A stretch of DNA of 64,000 nt, from sequence record NC_048170.1, one strand, 5' to 3'. The DNA is from Escherichia phage vB_EcoM_Goslar. The translations under genes and the position numbers were made by a program. Shown in pieces: positions 14,455 through 60,215 of the stretch (position 1 is its first letter; the number at the start of each line of letters is the position of its first letter). The notes under the pieces are model-generated. The model worked only from the letters and a program-made list of their open reading frames with translations. It was not told where the DNA came from and ran no database searches.

Positions 14455-14493
14455 TTTAACAGCATAAACCCTTCCTGCGTAAGGCAGGAAGGG
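14455..14493 (-). terminator. rho-independent terminator-like hairpin (10-bp stem CCCTTCCTGC, loop gtaag, then UUUAUGCUGUU on minus strand)
   Basis: Inverted repeat at 14469..14493, just downstream of 14508..15005. Confidence 0.55.
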
Positions 14494-17716: not shown

Positions 17717-17782
17717 CTTGACATCCTTTTATATTGGATTGGTTGCTAATAATTCAAGGTGAAGCTGATTACTGCATTGCTT

Positions 17783-17806
17783 CACCTAAGTAATATAGCC
17801 GTGAAA
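17783..17806 (-). promoter_or_regulatory. conserved 20-nt intergenic motif (copy 1), candidate promoter element
   Basis: taagtaatatagccgtgaaa at 17787..17806, identical to 46790..46809; both 45-70 nt upstream of a minus-strand start; minus-strand reading TTTCACGGCTATATTACTTA contains TATATT. Confidence 0.35.
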
Positions 17807-17824
17807 ATTAATGTATTAACCCAT

Positions 17825-21645: not shown

Positions 21646-21660
21646 TTTGTTTCCTTTTAT

Positions 21661-21688
21661 CGGCATAAGCCCTCCCATGCCGGGAGGG
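21661..21688 (-). terminator. hairpin CCCTCCC-atgcc-GGGAGGG downstream of 21694..22122
   Basis: Inverted repeat 21670..21688; weak U-tract (CUUAUGCC) on minus strand. Confidence 0.45.
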
Positions 21689-33361: not shown

Positions 33362-33730
33362 TTATTTATCGGGGTCTGGAAAATAGTAAAATCGCCAATG
33401 TAACATAGAAATCGCATTTCTTATTCGATTCGCACGAACACGACGTCCGAGAAAGGACTTGTAGCAAGAATCGCAATCCATAAACAACTCATGGCTCGAT
33501 TTCATCAGAACCACGATGTCTCTTATATACGAATTGCAGTACTCGATAAACGGATCTGTATCGTACGTATATTTCCTCGCACTACCTATCCCCAACTCCC
33601 TATTTAACTCACGACAATTTATCATGAGCTTCACATAACGGATAAGCCGAACGAAGTCACGTAAATTACGATTAAACCAATATCGATACCAAAATGACCG
33701 TATATCCCAAACAGTTCTATTTAACTTCAT
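33362..33730 (-). CDS. hypothetical protein (122 aa)
   Basis: ORF track. Confidence 0.4.
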   Translation of the reverse strand: MKLNRTVWDIRSFWYRYWFNRNLRDFVRLIRYVKLMINCRELNRELGIGSARKYTYDTDPFIEYCNSYIRDIVVLMKSSHELFMDCDSCYKSFLGRRVRANRIRNAISMLHWRFYYFPDPDK

Positions 33731-36972: not shown

Positions 36973-37005
36973 AGACGGCATAAAAGCCTCCCATTACGGG
37001 AGGCT
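36973..37005 (-). terminator. rho-independent terminator (8-bp stem AGCCTCCC/GGGAGGCT, loop attac, UUUUAUG on minus strand)
   Basis: Inverted repeat 36985..37005 just downstream of 37018..37566. Confidence 0.6.
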
Positions 37006-38262: not shown

Positions 38263-38595
38263 TTACTGAAACAAGACATTAAATTCGACGAGATACCCAT
38301 CGGATCTATCACCACGATATCTGTTGCAGAAAACACCGAATTTCATCAAGAACGCACATAACTCTTCGGCTTTGTATAGCGGAATACGATTTTCGTCGAG
38401 CAGAGGGCACTTATGGCTAACCCGCTCCGACGAATCAACGCAACACAAATAAAGAAGGAACCGAACGATAGCCCGGTTCTTAGTGAAGCTCTCGAATTCA
38501 CCTGCAGTTCTGAACTCATCGAGGAGCTTTGTCGTTTTCTTCAATCGTTCACGATCAAGCATGTTAACCTCAACACGAACATAACCCTCCTCCAA
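38263..38595 (-). CDS. hypothetical protein (110 aa)
   Basis: ORF track. Confidence 0.4.
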   Translation of the reverse strand: MEEGYVRVEVNMLDRERLKKTTKLLDEFRTAGEFESFTKNRAIVRFLLYLCCVDSSERVSHKCPLLDENRIPLYKAEELCAFLMKFGVFCNRYRGDRSDGYLVEFNVLFQ

Positions 38596-38626
38596 CCCGT
38601 AAGGGAAGGAGGAGGTGATTATGCTG

Positions 38627-44932: not shown

Positions 44933-44961
44933 CTTTATCTCCTTAACAGGTGCTGGTAACG

Positions 44962-44988
44962 CAGCATAAACCCTCCCCGAAGGGAGGG
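44962..44988 (-). terminator. terminator-like hairpin CCCTCCC-(UUCG loop)-GGGAGGG followed by UUUAUG on minus strand
   Basis: Inverted repeat 44971..44988 immediately downstream of 44999..45556. Confidence 0.55.
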
Positions 44989-46057: not shown

Positions 46058-46744
46058 TTAACACATGATTTCACCATGTTTCTTTTCAACATACGTATAA
46101 ACGTCATCCAAATAAGCAATGAGTTTATCACGATCCGCACAGAGCGATTTAATCACCGCAATCTCTTTCATATAAAGCTGCTGACCTAACGCCGGATATG
46201 TAATCCACGCGTAGCCGTCAGGCGCAAATTTAGAAATAAGATAATCAGCGGTTTCCTGTAATGCGAACTCTTTACTCATCTGGCCGTAACGATGTTCGAT
46301 TGCGCGGATACCAAAACGTTCGCTATCGAGACGGCCCATATCTGCCAGACGAAGCACCTGAGAAGCAACCGAACTACGTGGACCAGAGTACGAGGCACGA
46401 TGTTCAGCAATAAGTACGCGTATCTCCTCGATGTCCTCCGGTGTGAAAATATGCTGCTCGTTACGAAGCAGGATAACCGACGCACGAATACCCCCGATAA
46501 GGTGGTGGTATGTTCTGTTTTCGTGGCAAGCGATATCATGCATAAAAGCAGCGGTTAATAGACGACGACGTTCCGTGGGTCTGATGATCCCAACCACATC
46601 AGCAAGTTCATTTGCCAGTTCAACAACAGCAAGCACATGTTCTTCTTGATGTGCAAGATCGTTCTTCCGAATATTTTCAATTACTTCGGTGCGTGTTTCC
46701 GGAGATAAGAAATTTAAACAATCCAACGAATATAAAGATTTCAT
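46058..46744 (-). CDS. HD-domain phosphohydrolase-like protein
   Basis: LAHQEEHVLAVVELANE ... AAFMHDIACHE (H...H...HD pattern). Confidence 0.55.
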   Translation of the reverse strand: MKSLYSLDCLNFLSPETRTEVIENIRKNDLAHQEEHVLAVVELANELADVVGIIRPTERRRLLTAAFMHDIACHENRTYHHLIGGIRASVILLRNEQHIFTPEDIEEIRVLIAEHRASYSGPRSSVASQVLRLADMGRLDSERFGIRAIEHRYGQMSKEFALQETADYLISKFAPDGYAWITYPALGQQLYMKEIAVIKSLCADRDKLIAYLDDVYTYVEKKHGEIMC

Positions 46745-46785
46745 CGCACGTACCTCTTTGAATCTATTAATAAATTTTCTTTACT

Positions 46786-46809
46786 CACGTAAGTAATATA
46801 GCCGTGAAA
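46786..46809 (-). promoter_or_regulatory. conserved 20-nt intergenic motif (copy 2), candidate promoter element
   Basis: taagtaatatagccgtgaaa at 46790..46809, identical to 17787..17806; about 45 nt upstream of start of 46058..46744. Confidence 0.35.
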
Positions 46810-46888
46810 GGATTTGTGTTGGTCCGTCTCGATGCCCATCGTATTTTATGGATTGTCGAATGACGTCATTTTAAGGGACATCCCCGGC

Positions 46889-46923
46889 CTCCTCCCCAGG
46901 AAAGGTGTGGGGAGGAGTTTTTA
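46889..46923 (+). promoter_or_regulatory. terminator-like hairpin plus T5 run on plus strand, upstream of helicase gene (possible attenuator or boundary element)
   Basis: ctcctcccc-aggaaaggtgt-ggggaggag followed by ttttt; lies in divergent intergenic region. Confidence 0.4.
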
Positions 46924-46952
46924 TCATACATTCTATTAAATCGAGCGCGATT

Positions 46953-49034
46953 ATGTTGGATAGAATCAATCGTTTAATGAACCGAATAACGGTTAAAAAT
47001 CAGAGTAACAATAGCGTGCATATCGGGGGTATCGATGCCTGGCGTCTTTCAGATGACATTCAGCGAATATGGGGTACCTCCCGATTTATGAAACATATGT
47101 TTCGTAATTTCTCTTCTAGTGGACTCAGTCTCCACAACTTTTACCTTCTCGATTTCGTTTATATTCTCGAAACGATCGTCGAAGCAAAGAATACCCGCAG
47201 TAATAAACGCATGCTGAAACACCTTATTGAGGTACTGCTGCAGGAAACCTGGTTGCAAAATACCACAATCGAGCAACCTGCAATCCTCGATAAAGCACGC
47301 ATGAACAAAATGCTAACGCTCTCCCTGTTCGATTATCAAGATGAGTTTATCGACATCTATAACCGTAACGTACCTAAATATCGACTGAAAGGATACGTGT
47401 GTGCGATGGGTGCGGGTGCTGGTAAAACAATCACCGCATTGGCTTTAAGCGCCGCAATGAACGTCGACGTATTTGTGGTCTGCTGTCCTAAGAACACCAT
47501 GCGTTCAGCATGGCAATCCGATGTAAACAAAGCCATCGTTGACCTCGCGACAGAAACCGCATTCTGGTCAGATACAATGCCACCATCACAGCTGCAGAAA
47601 AGCGATAAGTATTATTTTCTGCATTACGAGTCGATGGGTTTATTAAACGATGTAATGATCAAGCATAAACGCACCGCGAAGCGCGTGTTGATCGTGGTTG
47701 ATGAAAGCCATAACTTCAACGACAAGAACAGCCAACGTTCCCAACGACTGGTTGATCTCGTACAGACGATGCGTCAGACCATGAATGCGGATGTGCATGT
47801 CTTGTTTATGTCGGGTACGCCCGTTAAACAGATGGGTTCTGAGATGATCCCCTGTTTAGGTTGTATCGATCCGATGTTCCAAGGACAAGTGGTCGATAGC
47901 TTCAAAGCAATTTACGGTTTAACCAGCAGTCGCGCTAACGATATCCTCAGACATCGTCTTGGGTTCATGATGCATGTCGTACCTAAAGAGGCTTACCGTA
48001 AAACCCGTCCGGAAGTTCAGGATGTTTACGTGAAGCTTCCTAATGGTAGCGATTATACCATCTCGAGTATCCGCGACGACATGGCGATATTTGTACGCGA
48101 TCGGGCGAAGTATTACAAGGATAACTGGGGGCATTACAGAAAGATTTTTGATGACGCCTTGGACTACTATCGCAAGACTATTCGTACCGATGGTGAACGT
48201 AAAGAGCTATCTCGATACGAATCGATTGTTGCTCGTTTCCAGAAAGGTTACGACCCCGTCAGAGACAAAGAAGATGCGATGTTCTGCAACGTGTTTGAAA
48301 AACGAGCGATCATGCCGGTTCTTCCTTCTGATTTAAGGGTTGCTTTCAAAGACGCCAAGAGCGTCATCAAGTACGTTGGGTTGAAAATTCAGGGTGAAGC
48401 GTTGGCGCGTGTTCTAGGTGCAGCCCGCATTCGGTGTCATGTCGACATGGTGGAGTACATCGACTTCGAAGGGTACATCAACAACGCTGAAGCCAAGGTG
48501 TTGATCTTCACGTCGTACGTTCAGGTGGTTGAGCGCGTCGACAACATGCTTCGTGATGCGGGTTTCTTACCTGAACCCATTTACGGGAAGACCAACAAAA
48601 ACATCAACCAGATACTTGCTCGTCTACGCGATGATCCTGACAGCGGTCCCGCTATCGCAACATTTGATAGCTTAGCTGAAGGGGTTCCGATGCTGATGTG
48701 TAACGTCGGCCTTTTCCTGAACAATCCATGGCGCTCATCCGATGAAATCCAAGCCATCAGCCGTCTCGACCGTGTCGGGCAAACGCAGCCTGTTCGGATT
48801 TATCGTTTCATGTTGGATACAGGAAGCGAGGGTAACGTTTCTACACGTAGCCACGAAATCATGGAGTTAAGTCGACAGCTTGTTGAAGAAATCACGGGTG
48901 TCAAATATGTAGTGAACAAGCAAGACGATGTTAACTTGCAAGAAACGTTGGCGATGGAAGGATACGATCAATACGTTACCGTAAACACCACGGAATACGA
49001 TATTAAACCGCGACCTGCATTCTTGGAATGGTGA
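46953..49034 (+). CDS. SNF2-like superfamily II helicase/ATPase
   Basis: Walker A GAGAGKT, DESH box IVVDESHNF, SGTP motif, motif VI QAISRLDRVGQTQPVRIYRF; start placed at ATG 46953 (ORF track start 46905 is GTG inside hairpin). Confidence 0.75.
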   Translation: MLDRINRLMNRITVKNQSNNSVHIGGIDAWRLSDDIQRIWGTSRFMKHMFRNFSSSGLSLHNFYLLDFVYILETIVEAKNTRSNKRMLKHLIEVLLQETWLQNTTIEQPAILDKARMNKMLTLSLFDYQDEFIDIYNRNVPKYRLKGYVCAMGAGAGKTITALALSAAMNVDVFVVCCPKNTMRSAWQSDVNKAIVDLATETAFWSDTMPPSQLQKSDKYYFLHYESMGLLNDVMIKHKRTAKRVLIVVDESHNFNDKNSQRSQRLVDLVQTMRQTMNADVHVLFMSGTPVKQMGSEMIPCLGCIDPMFQGQVVDSFKAIYGLTSSRANDILRHRLGFMMHVVPKEAYRKTRPEVQDVYVKLPNGSDYTISSIRDDMAIFVRDRAKYYKDNWGHYRKIFDDALDYYRKTIRTDGERKELSRYESIVARFQKGYDPVRDKEDAMFCNVFEKRAIMPVLPSDLRVAFKDAKSVIKYVGLKIQGEALARVLGAARIRCHVDMVEYIDFEGYINNAEAKVLIFTSYVQVVERVDNMLRDAGFLPEPIYGKTNKNINQILARLRDDPDSGPAIATFDSLAEGVPMLMCNVGLFLNNPWRSSDEIQAISRLDRVGQTQPVRIYRFMLDTGSEGNVSTRSHEIMELSRQLVEEITGVKYVVNKQDDVNLQETLAMEGYDQYVTVNTTEYDIKPRPAFLEW

Positions 49035-49133: not shown

Positions 49134-50585
49134 ATGAAACTCAAACAAAGCTGGAAAGACGAACTCCTTGCGCTAGTAAACAGCAAAAACAGCTTACAAC
49201 TGACGTTAGACGATGTAAAATTTGAACTGACGGCACCGGTAAGCGAAGTGCCTGGAACGGTTGTTGTTACGATCAAACCGAACGACGATAGCCGTTACTT
49301 TAACGAGCAATCTCTGACCTACGTTCGTCGAGACATCGCTAAAAACTTCACCGGGATCCCGTTACGGGTTATCGTTAAAAATGATACCGCCGTAAGGGAT
49401 ATCATCAATACGATCGCTGAACGTTACGGATTAGTATTTGACACAACCGTCGACTTCCTCGAATCCGAGCTGAATAAACAAATTACGTTCGCAGACACCG
49501 GTATTAAAGACATTACGGTTCCGGTTGCAAACACGTCTTATGTTTGGGCGGGTAATCTTCAGTTCAATATCGCTAACGATACGTTGAGCTTGATTACGAT
49601 CATCAAGCAAACCAATCTTACGAATCTGGTTTATCTGGATGGTGTTGAAGCTGACACATCGGGTTCGTTACTATTAGCAACAACCTCGGTTATCGGCGAA
49701 AACGGAAATGCCGAAACAACTGAAGGTGTCCTTGACGCCGCGTACTTCCAGAATATCCTGAACGTCATGGTTCGTTATGGTGATATTAACAGCGAACAAA
49801 TGCAACAAGCAATGCAGACAATTAACCAAAGCGAAGACGCTCGTAGAGTAGAAGTGCGGTCATACGGTGACGCCGAGTTACTGGTAACCACCAAGAAAGA
49901 TTGGGTTATCGGTAGCCTTAAGGGTGCTATGGTTGTTGGTCACGCTTCACCTAAACCGATCCAATACGTTCTTAAAACAAAAGGCGGCACCATTATATTG
50001 TCATTAGATGGTTGGACAAATGTCAATATCGATTGGGGTGATGGGAATAAGACGACGCAGGACTCAGGCGATAATGAATATCAGCACAATTATGCTGACA
50101 CTACAGAACGTACAATCGTCGCTACGGGTACCCCTACCAACACTGAAGATACAGACGTACAGCAAAGCTTCACCGGTGGTAACATCACTGAAATCGTTGA
50201 CTGGAACAACGGATTACCTAAGGCCCCATCATTCCTTGCGGCGAACAGTTTAATTAAGGTTCCCGATTATATCCCGGCATATTGGACGTCGTTAGAAAGT
50301 ATGTTTACGCGATGCAGCGCTATTAACGACGTGAGCATCACCAAATGGAACACCCGCAACGTTACTTCAATGAAGGACCTCTTCTACGGTTGCGCTACGT
50401 TCAACCAACCGATCGGTTCGTGGGATGTTTCGTCTGTTAAGAATGCAGACAATATGTTGTCTGGGTGCTTCGCGTTCAATCAGGATCTGAGTGGTTGGAC
50501 ATTCCCGGCAGGCACTTCACACATCAACTACGACGGCATGACCGCCGCATGGCAGCCTGATCACAAACCACGCTTCACCGAGTAA
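49134..50585 (+). CDS. receptor-binding-like protein: shared N-terminal module plus C-terminal DUF285-like repeats
   Basis: N-terminus MKLKQSWKDELLALVNSKNS...RRDIAKNFTGIPLRVIVKND...YGLVFDTTVDF aligns with 6868..7413 and 1..1081; C-terminus WNTRNVTSMKDLFYGCATFNQPIGSWDVSSVKNADNMLSGCFAFNQDLSGW. Confidence 0.6.
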   Translation: MKLKQSWKDELLALVNSKNSLQLTLDDVKFELTAPVSEVPGTVVVTIKPNDDSRYFNEQSLTYVRRDIAKNFTGIPLRVIVKNDTAVRDIINTIAERYGLVFDTTVDFLESELNKQITFADTGIKDITVPVANTSYVWAGNLQFNIANDTLSLITIIKQTNLTNLVYLDGVEADTSGSLLLATTSVIGENGNAETTEGVLDAAYFQNILNVMVRYGDINSEQMQQAMQTINQSEDARRVEVRSYGDAELLVTTKKDWVIGSLKGAMVVGHASPKPIQYVLKTKGGTIILSLDGWTNVNIDWGDGNKTTQDSGDNEYQHNYADTTERTIVATGTPTNTEDTDVQQSFTGGNITEIVDWNNGLPKAPSFLAANSLIKVPDYIPAYWTSLESMFTRCSAINDVSITKWNTRNVTSMKDLFYGCATFNQPIGSWDVSSVKNADNMLSGCFAFNQDLSGWTFPAGTSHINYDGMTAAWQPDHKPRFTE

Positions 50586-50606
50586 AAAAAAAAATAGTTA
50601 GCATAT

Positions 50607-50645
50607 CTTCCTCCCTACCCATAACGGGCGGGGAGGAAGGTTTAT
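50607..50645 (+). terminator. terminator between convergent genes (near-perfect 14-bp stem, loop ataac, then GUUUAU)
   Basis: cttcctccctaccc-ataac-gggcggggaggaag then gtttat; follows stop of 49134..50585. Confidence 0.6.
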
Positions 50646-51953: not shown

Positions 51954-53528
51954 TTACAATTCAAAATCTTCATCGATAACACGCTGGGTAAGCACCTTGT
52001 CGCTGAAGAACTCCACCTTGCGCTGATGGTATTTACGGTGCGCTTCGATAGATGTACATACCAGATACCAGAACGTTGGTGTCATTCCTTCGAACTTCCC
52101 TTTCAGCTGACGTAGGCGTCCCAATACCTGAATGTTACCGGTTCGTGACCCCATCGCTAACGTCATGAACGTCATCACCAAGTCAGGGAGGTCGATACCT
52201 GTACCTGCCGATTTCACCGTCGTAACGCTGATATCGTTATCCAACAAGACCATGAAATCTTCTTCAGCAGTATAAGGACCAATCTCTAACTCAGGAATAC
52301 GTTCACTGAGATAATGCGATAACGACTTACACATATCAACGGTTGCACAATACACCAGCATCTTCATGCCTTCCTGATACTGGTTCATGAAACCTTTGAT
52401 GATAACGGTATAGATAAAGTTGAAATAGGCGAGTTTGAGTTGCTTGTTCTTCATGATAGACTGTTCGAATATCGTGTGAGAATAAGAACCCCCAAAGCCT
52501 TTGTATCTGACTTTATCTGTACTGCGTAATCGATACGTTACCGCATTTACCGCAATGTATTTCTTGTATTCGCATTTCGCATAACGTGCTTCTTTCGGAT
52601 ACATCAAATACAACATCCGTTCGATGAACGGATCGTCGGACACTGCCGTTGCTGACAGATAGATGATTTCCGGAATATTCGCGTAACACTTCACTTTGAA
52701 CAAGAAATGCAATGCTTCGTGACATTCATCATGGATTAACAACCCAATGCCTGTTTTCTCCCAGAACTCGACAGGATGGAAAACATAAGGTGCGACACAG
52801 TTGTTCTTTTCATAATCGGTTATGTATCTCTGAAACATGTTCAGCGAGAATAACGCAATTTTGAAATCCAGCTCACCTTGTTCCACCAACGTCTGGAATT
52901 CCAGCATGCTGTAACGAGGAATGTCTGGATGTGGTGGGTCAGATTGAGCTGTGCCACGTATCTCGATAACATCGCCCGGTTCCATACCGAAGAAACTTAG
53001 CAGTGAGCTACGCCAACCAGGCATGTATCTCGGTGACAGGATAATACCCGTCCGTACACCGCGTCGGAAGGTGATCTCCTGCGACATGGCTGTTTTACCA
53101 GACCCCGTGCCTGCGGTGTTTAAGCTCATTCTGAAGGGGGTATCCTTACCCCCGTCCATGTACTCCAACCATTCTTGTTGATCTTCACGCCACGGAAACT
53201 TCCATTTCTTTACGAACTCCACTTCCTTACCTGGCACTGGATCGTGATAAACGATTTCCAACCACTCTTTTCGGATTCCTCGAGAGAAGATAAAATCCAA
53301 AAACGATTTCAACTGTTCGCGGAGTAAGTATACCTCGCTATAATCGCTTCTCGCTGCGGCATACGTGTTTATGGTATCGGTAACCATTCTCCGTGTACGA
53401 GGGTCACGCCGTTTCCTCAGATGCAAACAACGGTCTCGAAGGTAATGGCCGATAAGATGGGCAAATCGAAGTCCGTATCCGCTCAGCCTCATGCCATGCG
53501 AGAAGACGTCGATACGAGCTAACTTCAT
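51954..53528 (-). CDS. superfamily II DExH-box helicase
   Basis: Motif I GTGSGKT, motif II LIHDECHE, motif III LSATAV, motif V AGTGIDLPD, motif VI QVLGRLRQ. Confidence 0.65.
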   Translation of the reverse strand: MKLARIDVFSHGMRLSGYGLRFAHLIGHYLRDRCLHLRKRRDPRTRRMVTDTINTYAAARSDYSEVYLLREQLKSFLDFIFSRGIRKEWLEIVYHDPVPGKEVEFVKKWKFPWREDQQEWLEYMDGGKDTPFRMSLNTAGTGSGKTAMSQEITFRRGVRTGIILSPRYMPGWRSSLLSFFGMEPGDVIEIRGTAQSDPPHPDIPRYSMLEFQTLVEQGELDFKIALFSLNMFQRYITDYEKNNCVAPYVFHPVEFWEKTGIGLLIHDECHEALHFLFKVKCYANIPEIIYLSATAVSDDPFIERMLYLMYPKEARYAKCEYKKYIAVNAVTYRLRSTDKVRYKGFGGSYSHTIFEQSIMKNKQLKLAYFNFIYTVIIKGFMNQYQEGMKMLVYCATVDMCKSLSHYLSERIPELEIGPYTAEEDFMVLLDNDISVTTVKSAGTGIDLPDLVMTFMTLAMGSRTGNIQVLGRLRQLKGKFEGMTPTFWYLVCTSIEAHRKYHQRKVEFFSDKVLTQRVIDEDFEL

Positions 53529-55531
53529 AACGTGATTACATCCTCCGGTTTAGGTTCTTTACGCGGTAAAAGCATGTAGTCGATCGGATGATCCGGCTTC
53601 ATGGTTGGGATATAACTGTTCGGGTTTTGGAACGCATCCAGTTGCTCTTGGTGAGCGAACTTCATACTCAAGGAGCGCATGTTCATGTTCTTCTTGAAGG
53701 TACTGAAGTATCGTGTTGTTCCCTGTTTCGGCATGCGATAATCTTTCGTGTGTGGTGAACGAATCATGCTGGCGTAGAGAATAACATCGAGATGCGAAAG
53801 GTTCATTCGCAGACGCTGGGCACACAGACGATGCCAATAGTACAGCACGTTTGCAACTTCTTCCGGTGTCGCTTCGTCTTCCGAAAGGAATCCGGCACTG
53901 AAAGAACCTTTCCCGAATTTGAATTCACGTTCGATTTCTTTTGCGTATTCCATCATGTTTTTGTGGATTAACGGCATCTGGAATAACGTACGTGAATTGT
54001 CCCAATGTTTCAAGTCGAAAATCACAATCCCGTCAGACGTCACTTCCCAGCTATGGCGTTTAAGATAACGGATAAACGCTTTACTCGGGACAACGGGACG
54101 TCCACAGAAATCGAAATTGACTTTGAGCTTACGGTAGCTTTCATCTTTCCTGTCGTAAATCTCCATATCACAAAGCGTCATGTTAAACAGGCGTTGCGGT
54201 ATCAGCGAACTGATTTCTTCCGCTTCCGCTACATCGTACAACATGTTCGCAAGACCTAACTTCATCTTAATCAGCACGTGTTTACCTTTCAGCTCACGTG
54301 CGAGTTTGATGTCGTTCATATTCTGGCTGTAGCGAAGGATATGTTGATATTCCGGTGGGATTGGTGCTGTGGATACCGTTGACGAACCATCATGGTGTTT
54401 GGTAGAAAGAATGTTCTGCGTTACCTGTTGCGAACAGGTACGCGCTGCGCCATCGCCGACATTATCGGTTAGTGCGAAGTTATGACTTAATTCACCGTAA
54501 CACGTCGTACATACCCCAGCAGGATCGGGATGATGACAATAGTTAACGGAGCGCATACGCACTGTGGTGCCGATCAATTCTTTCATGTGTGGTTGTATCG
54601 CTACCAACGAACCGTCATCGCGAATAATGAATCGACCGTGGAAGCCACGCAGGTCGGTCTCATCACGGATTGGCATCGGGATGGTCTCTTTACTACCACA
54701 ATCTCCAGGATGGAGTCGTTGTACAACCGCTGTCGCTATCTGAAGTTCACGACCGAAATATTCAGACTTCTTGATCTGCTCTTTGTTGAACAGCAACGAC
54801 TTCGCCGCAGAACGACTTTCTTTCAAGCTGTCGGGAAGAGAGATCAAACCTGCCGCGTACGACCGCATTACTGGATCACGGAATATCTCGGAGTTAATAT
54901 CGGTCAAGAATCCACGCATCCCAATACACTGCAGCACCTGCCCAATCGAAACGTGTTCGGTTCGTACCGCACGCGCAATAGGGTTTGCGTGTAACGTTTT
55001 ATCGGTGCTCAGTACCTTGGTCAGTTTCTTGTATGCGCTTTCGATACCTTCACGGGTGGGTTCCGCTTCGGCGATGATTTTCTTAACTTCAGGATGTACG
55101 GTAATCTGATAAAAATCATCCGCGCAAATAGTCGTTACGTATTCCTCCAGCGCATACGTAAAGAAGTTATATACATTGTTAAACATATCGAACAATGCTT
55201 TCCAGAGAACCTCACGATTCTCTTGTGGATAAGCATACATGCATTGACGATACGCGGCGCTTTGCAACGCAACCGACGAACCAGCAGTAAACTTGCGTTT
55301 ATCGACCAGGTTCTCTTTTGTCAATGGTGTCTCAGGATACATGCGATGCACAGACCAGTGCATGTAACTAAAGAAAATGCGTCGCGCACGCAATTCATGA
55401 ACGCCATCGTCCATCTCGATATATACACGGTCATTAGGCTGTGCCCACTCGAATACTTCATCAACCGGCCAGTGCATAAGCTCGCGTGCCCTCACACGAC
55501 GTTTCGTGGTGGTCGTCTGTGTTATAGTCAT
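53525..55531 (-). CDS. multisubunit RNA polymerase beta-prime-like protein (C-terminal half homolog)
   Basis: VRMRSVNYCHHPDPAGVCTTCYGEL...AARTCSQQVTQNILSTKHHDG parallels E. coli beta-prime [22 protein letters not shown]...[22 protein letters not shown]; upstream IGQVLQCIGMRGFL parallels LNVLQYFISTHGAR; no NADFDGD motif, consistent with a split subunit. Confidence 0.55.
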   Translation of the reverse strand: MTITQTTTTKRRVRARELMHWPVDEVFEWAQPNDRVYIEMDDGVHELRARRIFFSYMHWSVHRMYPETPLTKENLVDKRKFTAGSSVALQSAAYRQCMYAYPQENREVLWKALFDMFNNVYNFFTYALEEYVTTICADDFYQITVHPEVKKIIAEAEPTREGIESAYKKLTKVLSTDKTLHANPIARAVRTEHVSIGQVLQCIGMRGFLTDINSEIFRDPVMRSYAAGLISLPDSLKESRSAAKSLLFNKEQIKKSEYFGRELQIATAVVQRLHPGDCGSKETIPMPIRDETDLRGFHGRFIIRDDGSLVAIQPHMKELIGTTVRMRSVNYCHHPDPAGVCTTCYGELSHNFALTDNVGDGAARTCSQQVTQNILSTKHHDGSSTVSTAPIPPEYQHILRYSQNMNDIKLARELKGKHVLIKMKLGLANMLYDVAEAEEISSLIPQRLFNMTLCDMEIYDRKDESYRKLKVNFDFCGRPVVPSKAFIRYLKRHSWEVTSDGIVIFDLKHWDNSRTLFQMPLIHKNMMEYAKEIEREFKFGKGSFSAGFLSEDEATPEEVANVLYYWHRLCAQRLRMNLSHLDVILYASMIRSPHTKDYRMPKQGTTRYFSTFKKNMNMRSLSMKFAHQEQLDAFQNPNSYIPTMKPDHPIDYMLLPRKEPKPEDVITL

Positions 55532-57596: not shown

Positions 57597-59765
57597 TTAG
57601 CTTTCGCAGTCATCTGCGTCGATGATTTGTCCGCCAGCAACGTTCAGCTGATGATACAGAATCCTCAACGCACGGTTGCCACCAATGGGATACTTCTCGA
57701 AGTTGGTTGCAATAGGAATCGCTGACGGCTTATCGGTCGCATAGATACTTTCAGTGATGCTATCCACCTGTTTTGGATTGTTCGCATAATCCATAAAGAC
57801 GCTTGCGAACCATCCGCCAGCAAAGGCGGTAACTTCGCGATGTTCAGATTCGCCACAGTAACGAGTTGGTTGCTCTTTACCCGGAGAACTGTATTTATCG
57901 CTATTACTGAGTTTCGACGGTAATCCATGCGCTTGCAATTTAGGAATACCCACAGCCGACCAATCGTTCGCCGTCTTCTCCAACATCATGATGTACGTGT
58001 CACCGATCGCAATATCGTTCTTGGTTGTCCGCCACTGCCCAGAACGCCCACGGTATCGTACAGGACCTTTCTTCAACGGGAACTCACGAATCAGATTCTC
58101 CATACGTTCTGAACCTGCTGCGATACTGTCCGTCGGGATATAAACTTCCGTACCGTGGCGTTGTACATACCGTAAATGATCCCATTTATCCTCATCCGTG
58201 ATACAGTATTTTTCAACAACCTGTTCCACGAATTCAGGACTGACGATATAGTAGTAACGCATTAGTGTGTTCCAAGCGGTCTCCAGATCGCCTGCATCCA
58301 TCACTGGTTTCAGTTCACGCATGATCTGATCGCCAACACCGTTGATGTAAGGTGCATTAACACGACTTAAACTCATCCTTTTGATTACCGTGCTATCGTC
58401 AAACATAAAGTCTGCAACGTTACCCCATTGGTCAACCGGCATCTCATCATCTTCCATGATGTCGGTTACGACGAATTTATCACCCGCCATACCAGTGAAT
58501 TTAAACCCGATACCTGGAACAACGTCGTACGTGTACGTGATGGTCACACGCCAATCATCGAGATTCTCTTTGCGGTAATCGCGGGTCGGTAACACATGAC
58601 GTAGCTGTCCATTAGGATTGCGGATATCAATACCATGTTCAGCATCAGCCAGGTTCAACCACCACATCACCGTTTGATGATGACGTATCGGCGTACCAAC
58701 GCGTTCACGTTCATACTTACGAACAGCATCCTGAATTCGGGTGTAAAGCAAACCGATTGCGTTCTCGTATTTCAGGAATTGACGATACGGAGGACGCATC
58801 TTCTCTTCCATCATAATCGCACGCTCGCGGGCTTGACGTCCAGAACGACGATGCCGGTCGCTGACAACATCGATATCCGTTACACGCGCATTCGGTTCAG
58901 CGTAAGTGAGGTCATCGTAAACATAATCCACACGCTGAAGATTACACGTCATCATGTCAACAACGCTGAGGATAGGATCTATTTCGCGTGTTGCTGCAAG
59001 TAACCCATCTTTACGAATACGCTCACCGTTCTCGGGTATTGCTTGATATACCTCATCATCGCCGTAGAGATTGATTGGGTATCGCGATTTACCTGATGTG
59101 ATTGTTCGCTTCTCAATGCCGGTACTGGTGAAATGTTTCAATACACCACGACGGGCAACACCACCATCCTCGATACACTGATAGAAGCTACCGAAACACA
59201 CTTTACAATCGCGACCGTAACCCCACTCGCGTGTTTCTTGATTGATCGCTGGGCTTTCCATCAAACGAGAATATCGCGGTACGATCTGGCCTCGACGGAG
59301 GGAATGGAACAAGTTGGTTGGTCGAAAACGGAAACCGTACTGCTGATGCATGATGTGATGCTCAGGCACTTCAAGCAAGCGTAGTTCGTGGCGGTTACCA
59401 TCCTCTTGGTTTTCATACAGCACGTAATGCATCGTGTTTGTTTTGATGCTGTTTGCTGTATGCCCCGGTTGGAAACGTGGGATGATATCTATGATGCGAG
59501 ATTCGACTGGAAACTCTACTGACCAAGTGTTCTGTCCGTACTGGTATTCAATCCCCGTCGTTAGTCGGGACGGTTTCGCATCTTTGATAACCAACGCTTG
59601 GCTAAGATGTCCACCAAACATCGCAGCGCGCTGTGCTGAGTTATAATGCAATAGCCCGTTAAGTCCAGTCCCTACGCCAGTATACTCCTGTTTAATGGGA
59701 ATGATTTTACCTTCAGCGATTGCCTGCTTCACAGATTCATAAAGAGGTTTTTCTTTATAATGCAT
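57597..59765 (-). CDS. multisubunit RNA polymerase beta-like protein (C-terminal half homolog)
   Basis: FKFTGMAGDKFVVTDIMEDDEMPVDQWGNVADFMFDDSTVIKRMSLSRV parallels E. coli beta [47 protein letters not shown]; also YIMMLEK versus YMYMLKL and a C-terminal segment parallel to GQRFGEMEVWALEAYGA; start placed at ATG 59765 preceded by AGGAAG (ORF track 57597..59930). Confidence 0.6.
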   Translation of the reverse strand: MHYKEKPLYESVKQAIAEGKIIPIKQEYTGVGTGLNGLLHYNSAQRAAMFGGHLSQALVIKDAKPSRLTTGIEYQYGQNTWSVEFPVESRIIDIIPRFQPGHTANSIKTNTMHYVLYENQEDGNRHELRLLEVPEHHIMHQQYGFRFRPTNLFHSLRRGQIVPRYSRLMESPAINQETREWGYGRDCKVCFGSFYQCIEDGGVARRGVLKHFTSTGIEKRTITSGKSRYPINLYGDDEVYQAIPENGERIRKDGLLAATREIDPILSVVDMMTCNLQRVDYVYDDLTYAEPNARVTDIDVVSDRHRRSGRQARERAIMMEEKMRPPYRQFLKYENAIGLLYTRIQDAVRKYERERVGTPIRHHQTVMWWLNLADAEHGIDIRNPNGQLRHVLPTRDYRKENLDDWRVTITYTYDVVPGIGFKFTGMAGDKFVVTDIMEDDEMPVDQWGNVADFMFDDSTVIKRMSLSRVNAPYINGVGDQIMRELKPVMDAGDLETAWNTLMRYYYIVSPEFVEQVVEKYCITDEDKWDHLRYVQRHGTEVYIPTDSIAAGSERMENLIREFPLKKGPVRYRGRSGQWRTTKNDIAIGDTYIMMLEKTANDWSAVGIPKLQAHGLPSKLSNSDKYSSPGKEQPTRYCGESEHREVTAFAGGWFASVFMDYANNPKQVDSITESIYATDKPSAIPIATNFEKYPIGGNRALRILYHQLNVAGGQIIDADDCES

Positions 59766-59796
59766 AGGACTTCCTATTATCGAATTGAGGTACGTC

Positions 59797-60150
59797 ATGT
59801 CTAACACGCCCCTGAACGACTTTCTTAAGACAAACCCCGATGACCTCATCCACGATCTTGATTTCAGGAACGTTGTTGAGATGCATCTGGAATATTTCAA
59901 AAATGCCGGACTGGTCTCTACGATAGACATACCACCCGAACGCGCCTACGAATTCGATGGTAACTTTTATGGATTGTGTCGTGTTCTGCTCGGCGAGGGT
60001 AGCGAACCAATGCACTGGATCACCCTGAGACTCAATGGTTATCGCGACCCTACGGAATACACCGCCGATGTTCTAACCATGAAGATTGTCGATACAAGCG
60101 CAATCAACACATTAAAACAACAGTACCGCACAATCCACTACAGCGCTTAA
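59797..60150 (+). CDS. hypothetical protein (117 aa), lone plus-strand gene
   Basis: ORF track 59785..60150; ATG 59797 preceded by GAGG; followed by hairpin. Confidence 0.4.
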   Translation: MSNTPLNDFLKTNPDDLIHDLDFRNVVEMHLEYFKNAGLVSTIDIPPERAYEFDGNFYGLCRVLLGEGSEPMHWITLRLNGYRDPTEYTADVLTMKIVDTSAINTLKQQYRTIHYSA

Positions 60151-60155
60151 GATAA

Positions 60156-60190
60156 CCCTCCCGCAACGTAAGGCGTAGGGAGGGCATTTA
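60156..60190 (+). terminator. hairpin CCCTCCC-15 nt loop-GGGAGGG then cattt, between convergent genes
   Basis: Inverted repeat read directly. Confidence 0.45.
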
Positions 60191-60215
60191 TGCCGTCGTT
60201 CGATGACTTAATACA

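Follow-up and report, generated by a model that had tools for sequence, protein, structure and literature searches.

What does a terminator-shaped hairpin do in front of a gene? The question is raised by a stem-loop and T-run at positions 46889-46923 of a stretch of DNA of 64,000 nucleotides (nt), the whole of which we call the window, from Escherichia phage vB_EcoM_Goslar (NC_048170.1). The hairpin lies between two divergent genes, shortly before the start of a helicase gene on the plus strand. We consider it probable that it serves as an intrinsic terminator like those of phiKZ, read on the plus strand within the 5′ leader of the helicase transcript, which would yield an RNA of ~73 nt and leave the helicase to be expressed by readthrough. 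The elements concerned are these:

46844-46863, plus strand: conserved block TTTTATGGATTGTCGAATGA, with TATG at 46847-46850; predicted promoter of the nonvirion RNA polymerase (nvRNAP), +1 at G46850
46850-46922, plus strand: predicted leader RNA of ~73 nt, from the +1 of TATG through the end of the T-run
46851-46867, plus strand: small 5′-proximal hairpin P1, GA..GUC GAAU GAC..UC, a weakly supported RNAalifold prediction
46889-46917, plus strand: terminator hairpin, a 10-bp stem of CTCCTCCCCA (46889-46898) with TGGGGAGGAG (46908-46917) and a 9-nt loop
46918-46922, plus strand: T-run, TTTTT, with ATC next

From 46889 to 46923 the plus strand reads CTCCTCCCCA-ggaaaggtg-TGGGGAGGAG-TTTTT-A. A preliminary description of the locus had reported a 9-bp stem followed by TTTTT on the plus strand; hairpin and T-run are real, and the stem has 10 bp, all 10 of them Watson-Crick pairs and 7 of them G-C. 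The isolated hairpin has a folding energy of -19.6 kcal/mol and is present in both the minimum free energy (MFE) and the centroid fold of its 66-nt context. A standard terminator scan, with its loop limit of 8 nt, missed it because the loop is 9 nt. Two stems in the window, both strands counted, have 10 or more perfect pairs and TTTT no further than 2 nt away, against a mean of 0.04 in 100 dinucleotide shuffles; the other is at 12162-12132 on the minus strand. Read on the minus strand, the stem of the focal hairpin is followed by GCCGGGGATG, without a T-run, and so the element is one-directional and belongs to the plus strand. An exact copy of the hairpin is also found on a 237.5-kb IMG/VR contig.

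The TATG block, counted from its +1, lies ~39 nt upstream of the hairpin. In phiKZ, TATG is the core of the late promoter, with its G as +1 (PMC4666361; PMC12809450); each single substitution in it is harmful, and the beta-like subunit reads it on the nontemplate strand (PMC4666361, PMC12809450). Activity of the phiKZ late promoter also depends strongly on downstream sequence, TATG being necessary, not sufficient (PMC4666361). By this motif, transcription here would start at G46850. A promoter scan of 46745-46952 found no sigma-70-like (host-type) promoter. The longer motif TTTTATGG-N2-3-TGTCGAATGA, which includes TATG, has both of its halves identical in the three phage lineages compared below. 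Within the window, TTTATGGATT occurs four times, with 0.19 expected and none of 100 shuffles reaching four, and a promoter class of this phage probably has it as its core. The two minus-strand copies are each found inside the 3′ part of a gene, ahead of the gene that follows, and the somewhat longer TTTTATGGATTGT has a second exact copy at 59965-59977 on the plus strand, in an intergenic region.

33475-33484, minus strand: copy of TTTATGGATT
46845-46854, plus strand: copy of TTTATGGATT, in the conserved block
57788-57797, minus strand: copy of TTTATGGATT
59966-59975, plus strand: copy of TTTATGGATT

Conservation of the predicted leader in three lineages

Relatives were gathered by protein search, contig look-ups, and a metagenome scan (21 matches, 7 of them true relatives and many others due to chance). 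All share the divergent arrangement of an HD-domain gene and the helicase, L003, L005, L006, and L007 included. They fall into three lineages: that of the window, with L007 plus L012, L015, L019, L021, L024, and L028 from the metagenome scan; a second, with L003, L004, L006, and L229-L235, whose helicases are 58% identical to that of the window (57% in another alignment); and a third, L005, with a helicase 61% identical. The order of elements is the same in all three: early promoter, TATG block, hairpin with T-rich tract, and helicase ATG, the ATG lying 30-38 nt beyond the hairpin and T-tract. The hairpin sequences differ by lineage (10 bp, CTCCTCCCCA.. with TTTTT; 13 bp, GCCTTCGGACGTG.. with ATTTCTTT; 7+2 bp, GCCCCCT.. 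with CTTTTT), and the T-rich tracts of the second lineage and of L005 read TATTTCTTT and TCTTTTT.

Within the window lineage, variability was taken as the share of variable alignment columns among 8 distinct sequences:

HD gene coding sequence (CDS): 22%
Helicase CDS: 15%
HD gene 5′ untranslated region (5′UTR): 29%
Spacer from the early promoter to the TATG block: 36%
30 nt past the T-run: 27% (8/30)
Early promoter motif: 1/26
TTTTATG, 46844-46850: 0/7
RNA body, 46851-46888: 1/39, one inserted A
Hairpin: 3/30

From 46844 to 46917, then, 4/76 columns vary, against 34/111 in the neighboring noncoding sequence (Fisher p=1.3e-5). Two of those four columns are a pair in L021, in which 46898 changes from A to G and 46908 from T to C, turning the loop-closing A-U into G-C; this reads as a compensatory change. 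The third change counted in the hairpin is an additional T where the stem meets the T-run in L007; the run is T6 there and TGTTTT in L015. The second lineage gives a similar picture. From TTTTATGG to the end of the T-tract, L232 and L235 show 0/92 differences, against 13.9% (290/2085) in the helicase CDS, 18.6% in the HD CDS, and 23/107 in the upstream intergenic sequence. These comparisons indicate that the unit from predicted promoter to terminator is under strong purifying selection, and more strongly constrained than the flanking proteins. In the leader of the second lineage the only variation is in a poly-G tract of 7, 6, or 5 G (3907-3913 in L003, and the same positions in L004, L006, and L232), and these length differences may reflect slippage or assembly error.

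Conservation of this kind bears on whether the repeat acts as RNA at all. An inverted repeat between two divergent promoters is symmetric at the DNA level and might be an operator or a cruciform, or it might have arisen by chance. Chance is excluded by the two observed stems against 0.04 expected. Across lineages the half-sites are not conserved, while the pairing and the one-sided T-tract are kept, which argues for an RNA hairpin or terminator and led us to reject the operator; the mirrored change from A-U to G-C retains pairing as well. We therefore regard a DNA-level palindrome, or a chance repeat, as highly improbable.

In length the predicted leader would be 73-74 nt for the window lineage, 86-88 nt for that of L003, and 71 nt for L005. 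All three lineages have the 5′ hairpin motif UGUCGAAUGA, and within P1 one pair covaries (A-U in the window lineage; G-C in L003, L006, and L005) and one G-C changes to G-U, in a comparison that spans three lineages only and leaves L021 aside. A leader-peptide attenuator was considered and rejected: the mini-ORF that opens at the ATG of TATG (8-9 codons) shifts frame by an indel, giving MDCRMTSF in the window lineage and MGLSNDPNI in L003, and it has no Shine-Dalgarno (SD) sequence. In L005 (1683-1795) that ATG is in frame with the helicase, with no stop between, so that a 39-amino-acid (aa) N-terminal extension without an SD is possible; it is not conserved in the other lineages and is probably fortuitous. 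No competing antiterminator helix was seen, MFE and centroid folds keeping the terminator in all lineages. Rfam 15 gave no matches at gathering score in the window, and those within 46700-47000 were at chance level (E above 2); no tRNA or tmRNA was found. When the leader was run in RNAduplex against the initiation regions of the HD gene, the helicase, and the next gene in the three lineages, it did no better than shuffled leaders.

The RNA body is extremely conserved over its full length, more than a terminator would require, and this could also mean that the locus is a stand-alone small RNA (sRNA) gene, its ~73-nt product acting in trans and the helicase being transcribed from a separate, unrecognized promoter beyond the terminator's control. 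phiKZ and 201phi2-1 do have intergenic sRNAs of similar size, and for the L003 lineage a separate helicase promoter is plausible, since a TATG (TTTATGCCGT) lies just past the hairpin. In the window lineage, only 30 nt lie between the T-run and ATG 46953, with 8/30 columns variable and no TATG, and the duplex search against neighboring initiation regions gave nothing above shuffled controls in any of the three lineages. We take such a gene to be unlikely, though not so unlikely as the operator.

Neighboring genes and the helicase start

The phage to which the window belongs is a phiKZ-like jumbo phage with a multisubunit RNA polymerase of its own. Beta-like genes of that enzyme are found at 53525-55531 and 57597-59930, and the window further encodes a tail fiber, a ligase, and ThyX. 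No near-identical DNA was found among cultured phages, and similarity to phiKZ-like phages is at the protein level only. The features flanking the hairpin are as follows:

46058-46744, minus strand: HD-domain phosphohydrolase gene (Pfam HD, E=5.6e-8), heading a divergent minus-strand operon
46786-46809, minus strand: early (virion RNA polymerase) promoter motif of the phiKZ type, reading TTTCACGGCTATATTACTTACGTG on the minus strand and facing the HD gene
46953-49034, plus strand: SNF2/DEAD-like helicase gene (Pfam ResIII, DEAD, Helicase_C, SNF2)
49134-50585, plus strand: gene for a DUF7941 + DUF285 protein (Pfam), second of the plus-strand unit and following the helicase in relatives too
50605-50641, plus strand: terminator closing the plus-strand unit, 20 nt past the stop codon, tail TTATGACG

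As the preliminary description had it, the hairpin is in a divergent intergenic region, 208 nt long, with the HD gene on one side and the helicase on the other. Nor is there an upstream plus-strand gene for it to terminate: nearly all genes of the window are on the minus strand, and the helicase and the gene after it are the only two convincing exceptions.

The same account suspected that a GTG start at 46905, inside the hairpin, was wrong, and the homologues agree. In tblastn the helicase matches only phiKZ-like jumbo phages (34-39% identity), and the alignments run from residue 1 of the product that begins at ATG 46953; N-termini are conserved from there (MLDRINRL / MLDYINRL / MLARINRL). Upstream of it the reading frame shows no conservation at the protein level, and the T6 of L007, a relative 99% identical, in place of T5 would shift the frame of any extension from GTG 46905, which we reject as the helicase start. 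On these alignments the true start is ATG 46953, and because the helicase begins there the hairpin is noncoding. In phiKZ the homologue is PHIKZ203, annotated "structural protein" (virion).

Several helicase homologues (P0012, at 4001-7135 of L006; P0029; P0039; P0067; P0077) have ~1,030-1,060 aa instead of the usual ~690 and carry LAGLIDADG_3 (PF14528), as does the 969-aa homologue P0095 of phage SL2, which indicates an intein or homing-endonuclease insertion in some lineages.

The SD sequence of the helicase is weak, and one can envision that the hairpin does not terminate at all and instead serves the stability, translation, or processing of the helicase mRNA as a 5′UTR structure, the T-run being incidental. 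Stable 5′ structures are common in phage mRNAs, and the early transcripts of this phage are predicted to start with hairpins too. Such a role would not account for a T-rich tract that follows the hairpin in three lineages despite differing stems, nor for arms that are those of the phage's 3′ terminators, and with 36 nt between its end and the ATG the hairpin is too distant to block the ribosome site. A nonterminating structure is, in our judgment, quite unlikely.

The early motif at 46786-46809 is taken to be the predicted virion RNA polymerase promoter of the HD operon. It matches both the phiKZ early-promoter core TATATTAC followed by ..GTG and the 201phi2-1 consensus TTTRARR_BTATATTACDWHDGTG (table 2 of PMC7058600), and its plus-strand form is common to all three lineages (CACsTArGTwATATAGsCGTGA). 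A second exact copy is at 17790-17804, upstream of a minus-strand gene. That copy (17786-17809, minus strand, TTCACGGCTATATTACTTAGGTG) adjoins a hairpin, GGTGAAGC-aatgcagtaatca-GCTTCACC (17760-17790, minus strand), and the copy at 46.8 kb likewise precedes one, CTTAC-gtga-GTAAG; early transcripts of this phage may thus begin with a 5′ stem-loop.

Terminator family, known leaders, and the proposed readthrough

A scan of the window for hairpins with T-rich tails brought out a family whose 5′ arm is rich in C and whose 3′ arm is rich in G, with the tail (T)TTATGCYG. Besides the member that closes the plus-strand unit at 50605-50641, it comprises:

14493-14469, 21688-21670, 37005-36985, 38615-38586, 44988-44971, 57163-57135, and 60184-60156, minus strand: family terminators

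The family corresponds to the motif BCCYCCCCHWWDGGGRRGGBYTTATKYYGT, described for 61 mapped phiKZ terminators (PMC10914365). Its 3′ half, GGGRRGGBYTTATKYYGT, has 11 matches with ≤3 mismatches in the window, against 2.0 expected. The focal hairpin is absent from these 11, its tail TTATCATAC lacking the full TTATKYYGT (here TTATGCYGT). Its arms do fit the phiKZ CCYCCCC..GGGRRGG type, as do those of about 9 other hairpins in the window, and TTAT is present in the T-tract directly 3′ of the stem (GGAG-TTTTTAT-C). All other family members lie 6-32 nt past a same-strand stop codon. The one at 46889 is alone in that it reads as a terminator in a single direction, its T-run being confined to the plus strand, and is preceded by no gene on that strand. 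Two other hairpins, at 38586 and 60156, can be read on the plus strand as well; these come after stop codons of minus-strand genes, and the plus-strand reading is their reverse.

This odd position could be explained if the hairpin were an insulator that halts stray antisense plus-strand transcription from the early operon and so keeps it out of the late helicase unit, the TATG block being something else, such as a binding site for a regulator. The preliminary description had likewise thought of a boundary element of the plus-strand island. The hairpin is at the left edge of the sole plus-strand gene pair in 64 kb, with the family terminator at 50605 at the other edge, and 9% of the phage terminators that have been mapped are antisense (PMC10914365). 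An insulator leaves unexplained the 39 invariant nt upstream of the hairpin, the presence of the nvRNAP core TATG, and the recurrence of the block at 59965, where it precedes a second, possible plus-strand unit, small and likewise closed by a terminator; further upstream of the hairpin, no promoter motif was seen on the plus strand. A boundary role is thus less likely than an arrangement of leader attenuator and small RNA, and we hold it to be about as doubtful as a nonterminating 5′UTR structure.

Terminators in 5′UTRs are not new to these phages. Across six phages 42 of them have been reported, along with 17 noncoding RNA (ncRNA) candidates in phiKZ (Putzeys et al. 2024, PMC10914365), and of the 11 sRNAs in 201phi2-1, 8 are derived from 5′UTRs (Poppeliers et al. 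2024, PMC11512511). The closest parallel is phiKZ T102, in the 5′UTR of PHIKZ221, which stops >90% of transcripts and gives a ~71-nt RNA on Northern blots (PMC10914365). As we read the PHIKZ221 leader, TATG is followed after ~70 nt by an imperfect hairpin with GTTAT, then an SD and an ATG. The two loci share an order of a TATG-type promoter (predicted here), ~70 nt, a hairpin with a U-rich tail, 20-35 nt, and a start codon. Each belongs to a phiKZ-like phage that has RNA polymerases of its own, and each is kept in close relatives; the 73 nt predicted here compare with the ~71-nt RNA on Northern blots there. They have no sequence similarity, however, and differ in the downstream gene (PHIKZ221 there; the helicase, homologue of PHIKZ203, here) and in the hairpin itself, an imperfect stem with GTTAT there and a perfect 10-bp stem with T5, known from sequence alone, here.

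The 5′UTR sRNAs of 201phi2-1 also have a terminator just past a promoter and before a structural gene, and are RNAs positionally conserved in related jumbo phages. Antitermination or dosage control has been proposed for these sRNAs, one of which, sRNA005, is upstream of a tail gene (gp182 family) and conserved across giant-phage genera (PMC11512511). Our element differs in being confined to one clade of three lineages. With the conserved-motif terminators of phiKZ it shares arms rich in C (5′) and in G (3′) as well as TTAT in the T-tract, but it has a loop of 9 nt instead of 4 and the tail TTTTTATCAT instead of TTATGCYGT, and it stands before a gene, not after one. Bacterial attenuators (trp-type, T-box, riboswitches) likewise place an intrinsic terminator between promoter and start codon, with expression via readthrough; here a phage polymerase is presumed, and no conserved leader peptide, antiterminator helix, or Rfam match was found. 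If the predicted TATG start is accepted, a terminator between it and ATG 46953 fits the 5′UTR ncRNA candidates of phiKZ-like phages. The element is then a clade-specific case of an arrangement already mapped in phiKZ and 201phi2-1, not one of a new kind.

We imagine that the phage's own nvRNAP would start at G46850 in the TATG block and transcribe a short 5′ hairpin, ~39 nt of conserved sequence, and then the 10-bp hairpin with its U-run. Most complexes would be released at the U-run, leaving a leader RNA of ~73 nt, while a readthrough fraction would go on to make mRNA for the virion helicase and the DUF7941/DUF285 protein, ending at 50605-50641. The element would in this way set how much of a low-copy virion protein is made, and perhaps when, and the small conserved RNA might also act on its own. 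For the window lineage, readthrough is the only visible route to helicase mRNA, because the 30-nt stretch from T-run to ATG varies freely and has no TATG. Given that no leader peptide, antiterminator, Rfam family, or significant complementarity was found, readthrough would be either constitutive leakage, setting dosage, or controlled by a protein. The start at TATG, the termination, the readthrough fraction, and any function in trans are all things we infer.

The preliminary description had also offered an attenuator in the helicase leader and the 3′ end of a small plus-strand RNA as separate options; the comparative evidence supports them as one arrangement. What favors them is the TATG block, the hairpin and T-run in three lineages, the compensatory change, and the purifying selection. 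No alternative accounts at once for the conserved TATG block, an RNA body without variation, a T-tract on one side only, and arms of the terminator family.

A number of points weigh against the terminator-and-readthrough proposal. Its start site and its termination are both read from motifs. The near-invariance of +1 to +38 could come from a downstream promoter element at the DNA level, of the kind described for phiKZ P119L (PMC4666361), and not from a function of the RNA. In the L003 lineage a TATG (TTTATGCCGT) comes after the hairpin, and a separate promoter past the terminator may serve the helicase there. The focal tail, TTTTTATCAT, lacks TTATGCYGT and has 4 mismatches to the 18-nt phiKZ half-motif, and the 9-nt loop exceeds the phiKZ consensus of ~4 nt, family loops in the window being 3-15 nt. 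Regulation of readthrough is without a visible mechanism in the folds predicted, which held no alternative antiterminator. Finally, the element was not found upstream of the helicase in 79 more distant IMG/VR relatives (helicases 32-39% identical): none has a TGTCGAATGA-like motif there, and a strict plus-strand hairpin was found in 12/79, a number matched by the minus strand of the same regions (also 12). A scan of IMG/VR for TATGG-N2-3-TGTCGAATGA gave chance matches only, apart from the source contig.

Whether the leader has a function of its own beyond being terminated is a further matter. The 0/92 differences in the leader against 14-19% in the flanking genes, and the UGUCGAAUGA motif common to three lineages, would fit a functional RNA. 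It might be a conditional attenuator that works without ribosomes, binding a protein or the polymerase and shifting this noncanonical enzyme between termination and readthrough, or it might be a trans-acting sRNA. We put this forward only tentatively and think it rather unlikely; a downstream promoter element at the DNA level explains part of the leader invariance too. Phages related to phiKZ carry out transcription in a nucleus-like compartment away from ribosomes, which, if it holds for this phage, would argue against ribosome-coupled attenuation and would suit an attenuator that needs no ribosome.

Alongside the leader RNAs of phiKZ (17 candidates) and 201phi2-1 (8), this locus is a further, independent example with evolutionary support. 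Three lineages keep one architecture around unrelated hairpins, and this, together with the compensatory change and strong selection, argues that such leaders are functional and not transcriptional noise. Positions 46844-46922 offer a compact, well-delimited element for work with jumbo-phage RNA polymerases, and the corrected helicase start, together with the early promoter, TATG-type promoter, and terminator motifs, should aid annotation of the remainder of the 237-kb genome.

Other promoter and terminator motifs

In phiKZ itself, the region between PHIKZ204 and PHIKZ203 (NC_004629; 2173-2234 of L031) shares the divergent layout, with an early promoter, GTAATATA, facing PHIKZ204. The motif found here is not present in the PHIKZ203 leader in that region. 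About 30 nt behind the early promoter, and ~240 nt before the PHIKZ203 ATG, is a hairpin, AAAGGAGCCC-ctggt-GGGCTCCTTT, with an A-run and a T-run at its borders. This hairpin has no plus-strand gene upstream, and a TATG lies ~40 nt before the PHIKZ203 ATG.

Like the phiKZ consensus, the family tail (T)TTATGCYG contains TATG (14459-14476, 21660-21677, 36975-36992, and 44961-44978 on the minus strand; 60179-60196 on the plus strand), and the G-rich 3′ arm with ATG resembles an SD with a start codon. The family "terminators" may therefore be terminator-promoter modules. The focal hairpin lacks the G of the tail, reading TTATC.

The hairpin at 38586-38615, CCTCCTCC-(14 nt)-GGAGGAGG, carries a TTATG-type tail in either direction (TGATTATGCTGT for the plus strand, GTTATGTTCG for the minus), and its flanking genes are on the minus strand only; a bidirectional terminator, or the end of an antisense transcript, is possible there.

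The second TTTTATGGATTGT copy opens a region (59965-60196, plus strand) within a 285-nt gap between two minus-strand genes. Downstream of it is a possible ORF of 46 codons, from ATG 60010 to TAA 60150, with GAGGG 11 nt upstream, and after that the family hairpin CCCTCCC(15-nt loop)GGGAGGG at 60156-60184, whose plus-strand tail is caTTTATGCCGT. In the opposite direction the tail is TTATCTTAAG, so that this hairpin is possibly bidirectional, and 59965-60196 may be a hidden small plus-strand transcription unit.

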